Shown piece after piece: positions 14,286-20,391 of a DNA stretch of 32,000 nt. Position numbers and translations under genes: made by a program. Each line of letters opens with the position of its first letter. The first letter of the stretch is position 1. Under the pieces are notes generated by a model, which saw nothing but the letters and a program-made list of their open reading frames with translations, ran no database searches and was not told where the DNA came from. The DNA is from Candidatus Saccharimonadota bacterium (GTDB taxonomy: Bacteria > Patescibacteriota > Saccharimonadia > Saccharimonadales > Saccharimonadaceae), in contig CP075337.1 of assembly GCA_025349965.1 (NCBI GenBank), forward strand, positions 60,001-92,000. The letters are read 5' to 3'.

Positions 14286-15149
14286 ATGGGTAGGAGTGTA
14301 TATAAAAACGTGAAAAAAACAGTCACATTACTTACTGTAGTGCTGAGCTTTGCTTCAGTGGTGTTCTTTGGGTCGCTTGTGGGTGCCGTGACTTCAAGCG
14401 GTGGTGCACAGCCCTATAAGGCAGATGGCAAAATTGATAACGGCACAATCGTTCAGCTCACCACTAAAGACTCGGGGCGCGTAAAGGTTGCCAAGCAACA
14501 GGAGCTCCAGAATATGTTCGGGGTGACGATTGACCGTGGTCTCTTACCATTTACAATGTCGAACGAAGGCTCGGAAGGTGACGTTTATGTTGCGGCCTCT
14601 GGAACGTACAATGTCTTGGTAAGCACGCAGGCGGGTGTTATAAAATCGGGTGACTACATTACCCTCTCTGCCATTGACGGTATTGGCATGAAGGCCGGTA
14701 CAGAAGAAAAGACGGTATTTGGGCGCGCAAACGCAGGCTTTGACGGCACAGGGGTGGTACTCGGTACTGTCACACTCAAAGACGTCAACGGTAAGGAAAA
14801 TGATGCGGTGAAGATTGGTACGATTCCGGTGACAATTAACATTCAGCGCAACCCTAATATAAAGAGTACAAAAACGAAAGTACCCGAGTTCCTTGAGCGG
14901 ATTGGGCAAGCAATTGCAGAAAAAGAAGTGAGCGCGCTTCGCATCTATTTAAGCCTCGGTATTACTGCGGTGAGTATTATTGCGGCAATCGCGATCCTTT
15001 ATGCGGGTGTGCGTAATAGTGTTATTTCAATCGGTCGTAATCCAATGTCTAAAAAGTCGGTATTCCGGGCGTTGATGGAGATTATTTTGACGAGTATTCT
15101 TATTCTCGTAATTGGTCTCTTTGCGGTATACTTATTATTAAGGTTATGA
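14286..15149 (+). CDS. ATPase-operon gene 1: signal-peptide protein with a ~190-aa extracytoplasmic domain and a C-terminal two-helix membrane hairpin; unknown family
   Basis: N-terminal VTLLTVVLSFASVVFFGSLVGAV and a beta-rich middle region. The C-terminus is LRIYLSLGITAVSIIAAIAILYAGVRNSVISIGRNPMSKKSVFRALMEIILTSILILVIGLFAVYLLL. Extended -10 TGCTATACT at 14261-14269. Sits where Fo genes are normally found. Confidence 0.55.
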   Translation: MGRSVYKNVKKTVTLLTVVLSFASVVFFGSLVGAVTSSGGAQPYKADGKIDNGTIVQLTTKDSGRVKVAKQQELQNMFGVTIDRGLLPFTMSNEGSEGDVYVAASGTYNVLVSTQAGVIKSGDYITLSAIDGIGMKAGTEEKTVFGRANAGFDGTGVVLGTVTLKDVNGKENDAVKIGTIPVTINIQRNPNIKSTKTKVPEFLERIGQAIAEKEVSALRIYLSLGITAVSIIAAIAILYAGVRNSVISIGRNPMSKKSVFRALMEIILTSILILVIGLFAVYLLLRL

Positions 15150-15178
15150 TTAGTATTTAATCAAAAGAGTGGGAAACT

Positions 15179-15916
15179 ATGGGGCTATTTAGTCGTAAAA
15201 AACACACAAGTAATTCGCCAGAGGACGTAGAGTTCTTTTTTGACGAACATTTTAGCGAAGAGCTTCGTAATCGAGGGCGATGGTATTTTGAAAATATTAT
15301 CAAAGAGAACGCAGAGCGCTTTCAGGAAGATCTTGACGCAACTATCAAGCAGGTTAATGTTGAGCTGAAGGATCAGATTACTGCTCGGTTGAGCGAGTCG
15401 GTAACAGAAATCAGTGCCGAGCTAAAAGAGCATGTGGCCGTTCAGGTGCAAGAGCAGCTCTCTGGTTTTGCATCATCAATGAAAGAGTCGCAAGATAGGG
15501 CGCTGGGCTCACTTCAAGAAAGTGCAGACTCTCTCAAGGGCCAGTATGAAGAACTTCGTACAACGCTGCGCAAAAGTGTAGATGATCAGAAAGTGACACT
15601 CACGAATGTATTCGAAGAGAATAAGGTTCGTATTGCGGCCATGCACGACGCCCAGAATATGGCGCTTGAGTCGTTGAGTCATAGCGTTGAGGCGTTGCAA
15701 AAGCAACACGACAAGCTTAAGCATACACTCGAAAAGCATGTGGAAGCCCAGCAGGAGCTCTTTATTGATGCCTTTAAGAATAATATGGCCCAAGTTGTTG
15801 AGCATTATGTACTGGATGCACTGAGTGGCCAGTACGATCTTAAGGATCAACTTCCATCAATTATTCAACAAATGGAAGACAAGAAGCAGGCGATTGTGGA
15901 CGACATGAAGTTATGA
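15179..15916 (+). CDS. ATPase-operon gene 2: soluble all-helical coiled-coil protein (possible peripheral-stalk, b-like, but with no TM helix)
   Basis: 245 aa, rich in E/K/Q/L with heptad-like periodicity and no hydrophobic segment. ATGA overlap with the delta-like gene downstream. Confidence 0.5.
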   Translation: MGLFSRKKHTSNSPEDVEFFFDEHFSEELRNRGRWYFENIIKENAERFQEDLDATIKQVNVELKDQITARLSESVTEISAELKEHVAVQVQEQLSGFASSMKESQDRALGSLQESADSLKGQYEELRTTLRKSVDDQKVTLTNVFEENKVRIAAMHDAQNMALESLSHSVEALQKQHDKLKHTLEKHVEAQQELFIDAFKNNMAQVVEHYVLDALSGQYDLKDQLPSIIQQMEDKKQAIVDDMKL

Positions 15917-17873: not shown

Positions 17874-18740
17874 ATGCGTCGCCCCTTAGAAATTAAAGCC
17901 CAAGAAGAATCAATGCGTACCATCGTGAGTCTGACGAGTGCCTTTGAAAGCCTTTCAAGTATGCGTATTATGCAGACTAAGAAGAAGGTGCTGATTAGCA
18001 ATGAATTCTTCGATGAAGTCTGGAATATTTACAAGCAAATCCGCGTTGATGTGATGTTTAACTTTGGCCGCGCCTACCACGAGCCATCTAATGACCGTGA
18101 AGTACTGATTCTTATTACAGCGCCAAGCGGACTGACCGGCGATATTGACCAGCGTCTTGTAAAGAAGCTGAAGGAATATTACGACGAAGAGAAGCACGAC
18201 ATTATTATTATTGGGCGTCACGGCGCAATGCAGCTTGATCAAGCAAAAATTAAGTATGATAAGTATTTTGACCTTCCGAAAAAGGACTACATTAACGTTG
18301 AGCCACTCATTGCCGAGATTAAAAAGTACGCCAAGAGCCGTGTGTTCTACCAAGATTACGTATCACTTTCACAACAAGACATCATTGATATTGATGTGAG
18401 TGAGGCAATCTCTACTATGGGTAAGGTTGTTGATCTTGAAACCGTCGGCGAAGAGGCAATTACGGAGAAGAATTATATCTTTGAACCAAATACTTATGCC
18501 GTAACGGCCTATCTTGAAACGGCAATTCTTCGGCTTATGTTGGCGCAATTTATTTATGATAGCCGCCTTGCGCAACTTGCCAGTCGCTTTAAGGCAATGA
18601 CAGCCGCAAAGGAACGTTCAACCGAAACGATGAACGATCTTCATATGCAATTTAGCAAAGCAAAGCGTGCGCTCGTAGACGTGCGTCTTCGTGAAAGCCT
18701 CGTGGGGCTCAAGAAGGTTCGAGCAGGAGGAGATTCATGA
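17874..18740 (+). CDS. atpG: F1 ATPase gamma subunit (divergent)
   Basis: 288 aa between alpha and beta. Long N- and C-terminal helices ([33 protein letters not shown]; ...[25 protein letters not shown]) flank a central alpha/beta domain. Confidence 0.75.
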
Positions 18741-20077
18741 GCGAAGAAAATCAGAATACAGATGAGCTTGGTGTAGTACGCGTACTACGAGATATTGTTA
18801 TTAAAGTACAGTTCTCGGAAAACATGCCAGAACTTAATGAAATTATTACTGTTGAAAATGAACAAAAAACACCACTCCTCGTGAGTTCGCTTGAGCATGG
18901 TGACACTGCCGTATGTCTTAATATTGCTGGTGACAGAAGTATTAAAAAAGGTGCACTTGCGCGAAGAACTGGGCATAGCTTGGAGATTCCAGTGGGCGAC
19001 GAAATGATTGGCCGCGTTTGGGACTCTATGGCACGCCCAATTGACGGGCTTGAGCAGCTCCCGCAAGAGGTGCTGGACAAAATGGAGAAACGCTCTATTT
19101 TCTCCCCAGCTTTTCAAGAGACATCCTTGAAGAGTCGTCCTGATGAAATCCTTGAAACCGGTATCAAAGTGCTCGACTTCTTTACGCCGTTCGTGAAAGG
19201 CCGCAAGATTGGTATTGTTGGCGGTGCAGGTGTTGGTAAGACCGTCCTGACTATGGAAATGATTAATAACGTGGCGGTTGGCTCTGGCGCGTTGAGTATC
19301 TTTGCGGGTATCGGTGAGCGTATCCGTGAGGGGCATGAGCTCTATGACACGCTTAAGCACAATGACCTTCTTAAGACGACAGCCATGTTCTTTGGCCAGA
19401 TGAATGAAAACCCAGTTCAGCGTTCATTGATTGGGCTAAGTGCGATTACATTGGCAGAGCACTTCCGTGATGACCAAAAGAAAGATATTCTTCTTTTCGC
19501 TGACAACATGTATCGCTATATTCAGGCGCGTAACGAGGTTTCGACTATTATTGACCAAACGCCAGCAGAGGGTGGCTATGAGCCGACAATCTTCAGCGAT
19601 GTTAAGGCACTCCAGGACCGCCTTTCGAGTAACGAAAACGGTTCTATTACCGCCCTTCAGACAATTTACGTGCCAGCGGACGACCTAAGTGACCCTGCGG
19701 TGCAGATGATTCAGCATGAGCTCGATAGTATTATTGTGTTGAGTCGTGCGGTTGCCGCACAGGGTATTCGCCCATCTGTAGATATCAACGCTTCAAGTTC
19801 AAGCCTTCTCACCCCTGAAATCGTTGGCGAGCGACACTATGAATTGAGTGTTCGCGTGCAAGCAATTCTTCAAAAGTATGAATCTTTGAAGGGAATTGTG
19901 GCGATTATTGGTGAAAGTGAACTTTCCGCCGAAGACCGTGAGGATTACGGCAAGGCGCAGAAACTGATTAAATTCTTCTCTCAGCAGTTTAATGTGATGG
20001 AGAAGATGTCTGGTATTCCTGGTGAGCATTATACGCGCGAAGATACGCTGAATGGTATTGAGGACATTATTAAGTAA
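18737..20077 (+). CDS. atpD: F1 ATPase beta subunit
   Basis: Motifs [19 protein letters not shown] (Walker A), [21 protein letters not shown] (Walker B Asp), [11 protein letters not shown], and the DELSEED-like [11 protein letters not shown]. Confidence 0.93.
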
Positions 20078-20391
20078 TGGCCGAAGAGCAGACGCCAGCT
20101 GAAGTGGTTGAGAAGGAAAACATTTCCCCTCAAGCAGCTGATACCCGCCCGCAAATGGAGGTGAAGATATACGCCCCATTCCGCGTGTACTATGAAGGCA
20201 CTGGCTACAGTGTGAGCGCTAAAAATGAAGTGGGGCCTTTTGATATTCTTCCCATGCACCGTAATTTCCTTTGTATGCTTGTGCCGTGTGACGTAAAAGT
20301 CCAAACACCCGAAGGCGAGAAGATTGTCCCTATCAAGAAAGCTTTAATGCATGTTAAAGCAGACCGCGTTGTTATTTTTGTAGACGTTTAG
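20077..20391 (+). CDS. atpC: F1 ATPase epsilon subunit, short form (beta-sandwich only)
   Basis: 104 aa. MEVKIYAPFRVYYEGTGYSVSAKNEVGPFDILPMHRNFLCML fits the epsilon N-domain (G.fgiLp.H). No C-terminal helical hairpin. TAATG overlap with atpD. Confidence 0.7.
   Translation: MAEEQTPAEVVEKENISPQAADTRPQMEVKIYAPFRVYYEGTGYSVSAKNEVGPFDILPMHRNFLCMLVPCDVKVQTPEGEKIVPIKKALMHVKADRVVIFVDV

Follow-up and report, generated by a model that had tools for sequence, protein, structure and literature searches.

The genome of Candidatus Saccharibacteria bacterium TM7i (780,698 bp) contains, within a stretch of 32,000 nucleotides that was analysed as a whole and is called the window here (contig CP075337.1, positions 60,001 to 92,000), a cluster of seven plus-strand genes at positions 14286 to 20391 which encode F1-like ATPase subunits and three further proteins, designated P1, P2 and P3. 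Among the accessory F1-like ATPases, the cluster represents a variant which is real and widespread and has not been described so far. The preferred reading, to which we give a probability of roughly 55%, is that it is an accessory F-type rotary ATPase uncoupled from ion transport, that is, an ATP-driven rotor acting on the cell surface. The evidence that carries this reading is the conservation of the cluster and of its catalytic subunits, the membrane hairpin of P1, which by its model is c-like in fold and loop motif, and the lack of both a conserved charge in the membrane core of this hairpin and a subunit a in the cluster.

The seven-gene cluster and its F1 subunits

The cluster begins with the gene for P1 (14286-15149, 287 amino acids, KI440_00375), which is followed by those for P2 (15179-15916, 245 amino acids, KI440_00380), a coiled-coil, b-like protein in the atpF slot, for P3 (15913-16440, 175 amino acids, KI440_00385), a δ/OSCP homologue, and then for α (16427-17872, 481 amino acids, UTX51410, or 487 amino acids if started at 16409), γ (17874-18740, 288 amino acids), the catalytic β (18737-20077, 446 amino acids) and a short ε (20077-20391, 104 amino acids), which has just the β-sandwich and none of the C-terminal helices. 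All seven are translationally coupled, with ATGA overlaps at 15913 (P2/P3) and 18737 (γ/β), a TAATG overlap at 20075-20079 (β/ε) and a spacing of 1 nucleotide between α and γ. Two in-frame GTG codons are available as the start of α; because NCBI annotates that at 16427, which follows a GGAGG ribosome-binding site, this start is more likely than the one at 16409, which had been taken when the DNA was read from sequence alone, and α started at 16427 overlaps the end of P3 by 14 nucleotides. A scan for promoters and terminators gave counts near background, and no operon boundaries were assignable. The proteins of the cluster region are deposited as UTX51408-UTX51414 (KI440_00375 to KI440_00410), and the NCBI names are "hypothetical" for P1, P2, P3 and ε and "sodium-transporting two-sector ATPase" for α.

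The catalytic motifs are all in place, namely GGAGVGKT at residue 162, GERIREG at residue 193 and LLFADN at residue 252 of β, and GDGKVGKT at residue 163 and SVTRVGG at residue 355 of α (numbered from the start at 16409). Among the orthologues, GGAGVGKT and GERIREG are kept in all 56 of 56 β subunits and the arginine finger in 63 of 64 α subunits. In Pfam, α and β match PF00006 (E about 1e-63), γ matches PF00231 (E 3.9e-25) and ε matches PF02823 over residues 27-103 of its 104, which is the β-sandwich. The gene layout, the overlaps, the motifs and the identities of the δ-like, α, γ, β and short ε proteins, as proposed in the sequence-only reading, were thereby confirmed, P3 by the profile described below. 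However, the canonical NCBIfam equivalog cut-offs are missed by α (362 versus 484 bits), β (424 versus 463), γ (67.9 versus 194, TIGR01146) and ε (28.5 versus 67). The canonical models nevertheless give the best scores among the families compared, although all four F1 subunits stay below every family cut-off.

As to subunit lengths, ε orthologues have a median of 103 amino acids, and the N-terminus of α is about 12 residues shorter than that of canonical α. In most other species α and β appear about 30-45 codons longer (for example in locus L003, 12179-13753 and 14620-16056) than in TM7i and the two loci nearest to it, L008 and L027, lengths which were taken from match coordinates and from an open reading frame caller that may overextend starts. 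In locus L078, on a contig of 778,864 bp, β is called as two open reading frames of 67 and 382 amino acids (14326-15640), a split that comes from a frameshift or assembly error or else marks a pseudogene.

Relatives of P1 were found at 75 loci in a scan of GTDB species representatives, and these records are labelled Saccharibacteria or Saccharimonadia except for a few with other or generic submitter labels. All seven genes are present in the same order in 57 of 77 related loci, 19 of the remaining 20 end at a contig edge, and in every related locus P1 comes first. When 50%-identity representatives were searched exhaustively, 1193 clusters fell into the P1 family, and a homologue search with the distant P1 relative P0239 gave two matches. 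In two loci, L078 and L079, where P1 is only 30-36% identical, the same seven-gene arrangement persists despite different upstream genes, so the seven genes form a conserved unit; the cluster is self-contained and conserved across Saccharibacteria. The median identity to the window over the related loci is 79% for β, 72% for α, 65% for γ, 64% for P1, 59% for ε and about 44% for P2 and P3. This bears on the idea that the cluster is a decaying, functionless duplicate of the canonical operon, for which its patchy occurrence could be quoted: it is missing from Southlakia, and TM7x and RAAC3 are without a second set by published counts (PMC12592800). But the identities of β and α across the related loci, the retention of the catalytic motifs and the size of the P1 family, in which the loop of the hairpin is invariant, are at odds with decay, and conservation effectively refutes this explanation.

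P1, the stalk proteins and subunit a

The model of P1 made with AlphaFold2 from 118 diverse sequences (predicted local distance difference test score 91.3) consists of an N-terminal hydrophobic helix (signal or anchor), a β domain, a short amphipathic helix and a hairpin of two helices (residues 217-251 and 253-286), which agrees with the signal peptide, extracytoplasmic domain and C-terminal two-helix hairpin that had been read from the letters. The ecto-domain (14409-14849, residues 42-188) is all-β, and in Foldseek its fold resembles phage head-decoration/DUF2190 proteins and the C-terminal domain of phi29 gp12. The matches in the PDB are 8pkh (E 9.5e-5) and also 9ocb, 5wk1, 3gqh and lambda gpD (1c5e), and those in BFVD are preneck appendage and DUF2190 proteins with E values down to 8e-9. 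At the sequence level the β domain has no match in Pfam, PHROGs or the PDB, and the PHROGs scan of P1 and its neighbours gave nothing useful.

The transmembrane hairpin (14934-15143, residues 217-286) is c-subunit-like by Foldseek and NCBIfam. It superimposes on the Chloroflexus c subunit 9itt_I with a TM-score of 0.90, a root-mean-square deviation of 1.2 Å and 20% identity, and further matches are the c subunits of bovine, Yarrowia and Paracoccus enzymes, overall with TM-scores of 0.8-0.9 and deviations of 1.2-1.6 Å. The top 50 structure matches are F-type c subunits, with no other kind of hairpin among them, and the hairpin alone matches the NCBIfam model PRK07159 (subunit c) with E 4.6e-4. 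In the 118 sequences, which are 27-74% identical, the only invariant columns of P1 are G132 and the loop G250-R251-N252-P253 (15033-15044). In an alignment of eight c subunits, the R-(Q/N)-P loop supplies the only two invariant columns, R and P. This loop of c subunits is the seat of γ and ε. Since five basic residues flank the loop of P1, as read from the sequence, the positive-inside rule puts the loop in the cytoplasm and the β domain outside; the native c subunit has the same topology, with its N-terminus outside. It is the operon position, topology, fold and loop motif taken together that suggest a hairpin derived from subunit c, and on the model it is c-like in both fold and loop motif.

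The hairpin has no ion-binding site. Per-column counts over the P1 alignment show no conserved charge or carboxylate in the membrane core: positions 266-285 are hydrophobic or small only, and at position 265, where the cytoplasmic interface lies, 68 sequences have Q, 18 have E, 12 have K and 7 have R, and A also occurs. In a global alignment, Asp61 of the E. coli c subunit falls on an aliphatic residue of P1, and P1 has no GxGxGxG motif. The first assessment, that no protein of the window has a c-ring GxGxGxG or carboxylate helix, holds for the glycine motif and the carboxylate but needs qualifying, as the hairpin is c-like in fold and loop.

P3 belongs to the stalk. A single P3 sequence gives weak NCBIfam δ matches below the cut-off, and a profile of 55 orthologues matches bovine OSCP (E 3.8e-6), Bacillus PS3 δ (4.5e-6) and 16 further δ/OSCP chains of solved structures, so on profile evidence P3 is a true δ/OSCP homologue. 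P2 gives matches of the coiled-coil type only, with no sequence match to ATP-synt_B, and is probably a b-like peripheral-stalk protein. In the TM7i-type lineage it has no hydrophobic segment (median peak hydropathy 0.65), as the earlier description of a 245-residue coiled-coil protein without a transmembrane helix had it. In three more distant loci, P2 orthologues have an N-terminal transmembrane helix (19-residue hydropathy of 2.3 in L075, 3.5 in L078 and 2.8 in L079), and in L078 (10869-11483) and L079 (4880-5491) this helix is followed by the motif FxxxFRxELRNRGRxYFE, which is the same in TM7i-type P2. The latter has a short conserved MGLF..K N-terminus in place of the anchor. Because of these anchored orthologues, the ancestral P2 was probably a membrane-anchored stalk, the anchor of which was replaced by the MGLF..K N-terminus in TM7i-type lineages. 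It had been noted that the upstream slots hold two genes, which is correct; these do not encode unrelated proteins, as P1 ends in a c-like hairpin and P2 is b-like.

Among the Fo-type parts of the cluster it is subunit a alone that is truly missing. No ATP-synt_A or ATP-synt_C match in Pfam was found among the window's open reading frames of at least 150 amino acids over the 32 kb, the rest of the TM7i genome being outside this search (for the reading frames at 6487-8877 and 9676-10782, precomputed Pfam matches were used), and the absence of a subunit-a protein from the window, already remarked on, holds. In addition, tblastn with a fragment of E. coli subunit a and with the E. coli and PS3 c subunits against 79 related loci gave nothing significant, so there are no canonical atp genes within 10 kb of the cluster. 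With neither a subunit a nor a conserved membrane carboxylate, a P1 ring would neither pump ions nor be driven by them.

The canonical enzyme is present in some Saccharibacteria. Southlakia epibionticum has a full canonical operon (atpI, a, c, b, δ, α, γ, β, ε; SEML1_0349-0358), and since its full annotation table lists PF00006 no more than twice it lacks the accessory cluster. Orthologue counts from KEGG for complete genomes give one copy each of a, b and c and two each of α, β and γ in GWC2_44_17, S. aalborgensis and M. amalyticus, and one copy of each of the six in TM7x and RAAC3 (PMC12592800 Table S5). GWC2_44_17 is CP011211.1, that is, our locus L046, which carries the full seven-gene cluster. 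Because this genome has canonical a, b and c together with doubled α, β and γ, the cluster is an accessory system beside a canonical F1Fo, at least in GWC2_44_17, rather than an enzyme with split Fo genes. The sequence-only reading had left two possibilities. The first, that Fo genes are split off elsewhere, was rejected on the Southlakia operon and the GWC2_44_17 counts. The second, that an F1-like motor is coupled to a novel partner in the membrane or on the surface, is favoured by the evidence, except that the proteins taken as novel are c-like (P1), b-like (P2) and δ (P3). The paper on TM7i makes no statement on ATP synthase.

Compared with canonical F1Fo, the cluster is alike in the α3β3 catalytic motifs, γ, the ε β-sandwich, δ/OSCP, a coiled-coil b-like stalk (membrane-anchored in the three distant loci), a hairpin of two helices that has an R-(Q/N)-P loop at the c position, and a gene order from c to ε that is canonical minus atpB. 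It is unlike in having no subunit a, in a hairpin without an ion-binding carboxylate, to which a signal peptide and an extracellular β domain of about 150 amino acids are fused, in the TM7i b-like protein without a transmembrane helix, in ε without C-terminal helices, in the shortened α N-terminus and in subunits that are all under the NCBIfam equivalog cut-offs. An ion-coupled F1Fo with a divergent Fo, in which P1 would be an N-terminally extended c subunit and subunit a would come from a gene elsewhere or be supplied by the canonical operon, would account for the gene order and for the fact that α and β score nearest to canonical F1 models. It would also suit several CAILAD01 bins, which have α, β, γ and ε without a, b and c, on which the paper does not comment (PMC12592800 Table S5); these bins may have only the accessory-type ATPase. 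Such an enzyme, however, is improbable in view of the membrane core of P1, which has neither a carboxylate nor a conserved charge, the interface residue 265, which can be Q, E, K, R or A, the scores of α, β, γ and ε under the equivalog cut-offs, the complete canonical Fo counted in GWC2_44_17, with like counts in S. aalborgensis and M. amalyticus, and the loss of the P2 transmembrane helix in most lineages.

Comparison with other accessory F-type ATPases

The accessory F1-like ATPases of mollicutes, type 2 (the G1 gliding ATPase of M. mobile) and type 3 (associated with MIB-MIP), resemble the present system in several respects. They too are seven-gene accessory clusters beside a canonical F1Fo, they have F1-like α, β, γ and ε with a shortened α N-terminus, they are proposed to energise an extracellular process with ATP, and their "Protein 5" has the topology of P1, although no sequence similarity was detected. 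Their content, however, is a protein with 12 transmembrane helices, a small cytoplasmic "Protein 2", γ, ε, a protein that has a signal peptide and also a pair of C-terminal transmembrane helices, α and β, without δ or b, whereas the order here is P1, P2, δ, α, γ, β, ε; neither the 12-helix protein nor "Protein 2" is found here, and δ and the b-like stalk occur only here. The P1 ecto-domain, of about 150 amino acids, also differs from their proteins of 85-127 kDa and is unrelated in sequence. No domains of MIB-MIP or gliding-machinery genes were found among the window's open reading frames.

In the family models, α scores 380 and 362 bits with canonical models, 319 with MMOB1660 and 249 with MSC_0619, and β scores 424 with the canonical model, 385 with MSC_0618 and 343 with MMOB1670. 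The mollicute cut-offs are 570 for MSC_0618, 520 for MSC_0619, 600 for MMOB1660 and 850 for MMOB1670, so that all four are missed. The closest β relatives of solved structure are canonical F1 β subunits (367 bits), ahead of the M. mobile G1 β (287 bits). Membership of mollicute types 2/3 was rejected, as gene order, gene content and family cut-offs all fail; the parallel with mollicutes first drawn from the sequence is sound as a functional analogy and not as a class assignment.

A horizontally acquired, direct homologue of the mollicute type 2/3 F1-like X0 ATPase, working alike, would explain the number of genes, the F1-like α, β, γ and ε, the 385 bits of β on MSC_0618 and the topology shared with "Protein 5", and related Omnitrophota α subunits have been placed with types 2/3 (Seymour 2023, PMC10066038). 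Against this stand the differing gene order, the absence of the 12-helix and small cytoplasmic proteins, the presence of δ and a b-like protein which mollicute clusters lack, the four missed cut-offs with higher scores for canonical models, and the greater distance of the M. mobile G1 β than of canonical β subunits. Direct homology of this kind is therefore very improbable.

The N-ATPase (atpDCQRBEFAG) is likewise an accessory F-type operon beside a canonical one, but it has subunits a and b, an ion-binding c, atpQ and atpR and another gene order. The alt_F1F0 cut-offs are missed by α (307 versus 750 bits), β (386 versus 752) and γ (24 versus 282). N-ATPase membership was rejected on gene order and on these scores, which are far under the cut-offs.

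The "non-respiratory" or "symbiotic" F-type ATPase of Omnitrophota is also a second F-type α/β set, apart from the respiratory enzyme, of ultrasmall host-associated bacteria. Within 10 kb of it there are type IVa pilus genes, its β clusters with Saccharimonadia (TM7) sequences, and it has been proposed to serve in attachment or motility (Seymour 2023, PMC10066038). Atypical F-type β subunits of Saccharimonadia have thus already been noted in that work. No pilus-related Pfam match, in contrast, was found among the open reading frames of the 32-kb window or the gene calls of L001, and counterparts of P1, P2 and P3 are not described in PMC10066038. Among the papers searched, none was found that ties "F1-like" to Saccharibacteria or Patescibacteria, and of the papers on these phyla that involve Mycoplasma mobile or gliding only Seymour 2023 was relevant.

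Proposed mechanism, neighbouring genes and biological meaning

In the proposed mechanism, α3β3 would hydrolyse ATP and thereby turn γ and ε, which would dock on a ring of P1 at the invariant cytoplasmic loops G-R-N-P. The hairpins of this ring would be derived from, or have converged on, subunit c, and δ (P3) and the b-like coiled coil (P2) would form the peripheral stalk. Outside the membrane, the putative P1 ring would project a crown of extracytoplasmic β domains, to which torque or a conformational stroke could pass and thence to partners in the envelope or on the surface, for which the syntenic surface proteins are candidates. In its most specific form, P1 would be a c-ring turned into a transmembrane drive shaft, composed of ion-blind c-like hairpins with extracellular β domains and spun by the F1 head; we hold this form only tentatively, at somewhat less than even odds.

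Several observations weigh against the rotor and its ring of P1. The stator is the main weakness, as nothing visibly anchors P2 in TM7i-type lineages. At the sequence level, the evidence that the P1 hairpin is homologous to subunit c is weak and not significant: the P1 profile found no match among PDB sequences up to E 10, and although hhalign with the eight c subunits put RNP in register on RQP, the alignment is weak (local P 0.007, probability 5.6%); a reversed-sequence control scored worse, which is still no proof of homology. In addition, resemblance to a c subunit may be found with any tight hairpin of helices. Finally, L079 has no flanking surface genes, including that for the 357-residue protein described below, so the link between the cluster and surface proteins is not obligatory.

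Some of these points suit an F1-like ATPase that is tethered by a non-rotating P1, acting as a static anchor or lever, and that uses a conformational stroke to display, reset or export surface proteins, a role of the sort that has been put forward for the type 3 ATPase of mollicutes together with MIB-MIP. The b-like P2 is without an anchor in the membrane in TM7i-type lineages, the cluster is tightly syntenic with surface-protein genes, and the ecto-domain has the fold class of phage capsid decoration proteins, which assemble as trimers and are not known to form rings. The R-N-P loop, the c-like hairpin and the retention of γ/ε and of a δ/b stalk, on the other hand, are hallmarks of a rotor and stator, and no sequence similarity to X0 proteins of mollicutes was detected. 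A static P1 is accordingly rated unlikely, though deserving of attention, and the rotor acting on the surface is kept as the preferred reading.

The cluster is flanked on both sides by genes on the opposite strand, as described at the outset of the work. The divergent upstream neighbour (12111-14117, minus strand) encodes an anchored surface protein of 668 amino acids without a Pfam match. This gene was matched in 67 related loci; it is a syntenic neighbour in the closer lineages only and does not stand beside the cluster in L078 or L079. The convergent neighbour (20388-21461, minus strand, KI440_00410) encodes a bitopic protein of 357 amino acids with an acidic, disordered cytoplasmic N-terminus of about 85 residues, one transmembrane helix and a β-helix-like ecto-domain with a weak bactofilin-like match. 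It is syntenic in 53 related loci and also stands beside the cluster in L078 (15962-16990, minus strand), with 36% identity over the full length (E 2e-72). It may be an accessory or partner protein, perhaps an eighth component. The ε stop codon TAG (20389-20391) overlaps the stop codon TAA of this gene (20388-20390, minus strand), leaving no intergenic space or terminator.

Farther downstream, at 21538-31038, the window encodes secreted paralogues of 246, 524, 359 and 378 amino acids which share a C-terminal module ending in ...PTY, together with a pair of 352 and 342 amino acids. The 342-residue protein (30010-31038) has a weak match, just below the Pfam threshold, to the peptidoglycan-binding domain of WxL-interacting proteins, and in L078 (17426-20484) the cluster is followed by relatives of the secreted paralogues, with ...PTY or ...TGTY as their last residues. 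This downstream region looks like a WxL/csc-like surface locus. At the other end of the window, at 149-2953, there is an exopolysaccharide-type pair of a bacterial sugar transferase and a Wzy/O-antigen-ligase-like protein, followed by a β-lactamase-fold protein with a peptidoglycan-binding domain and then a class A penicillin-binding protein. The window is thus dominated by envelope functions.

The accessory F1-like ATPases of mycoplasmas drive gliding and are needed for antibody cleavage. In Saccharibacteria, this kind of enzyme still shows a recognisable δ, a b-like stalk and a c-like hairpin; subunit a and the ion site are gone, and an outward domain has been added. This architecture gives a concrete, testable model of a surface-acting rotor. 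The system is widespread and occurs also in cultivated strains, with the cluster in TM7i and a second α/β/γ set, by published counts, in Mycosynbacter amalyticus. In current annotation the subunits appear as those of an ordinary "F0F1 ATP synthase" accompanied by hypothetical proteins, and counts of F-type ATPase genes may for this reason misread the cluster as respiratory capacity. If the drive-shaft model were true, this would be the first rotary ATPase with an extracellular mechanical output in place of an ion gradient, and it could explain the "X0" sector of the type 2/3 ATPases of mollicutes, in which "Protein 5" shares the topology of P1. Furthermore, it would provide these non-respiring episymbionts with a means of putting energy into their envelope, whether to attach to hosts, for surface motility or to move adhesins.

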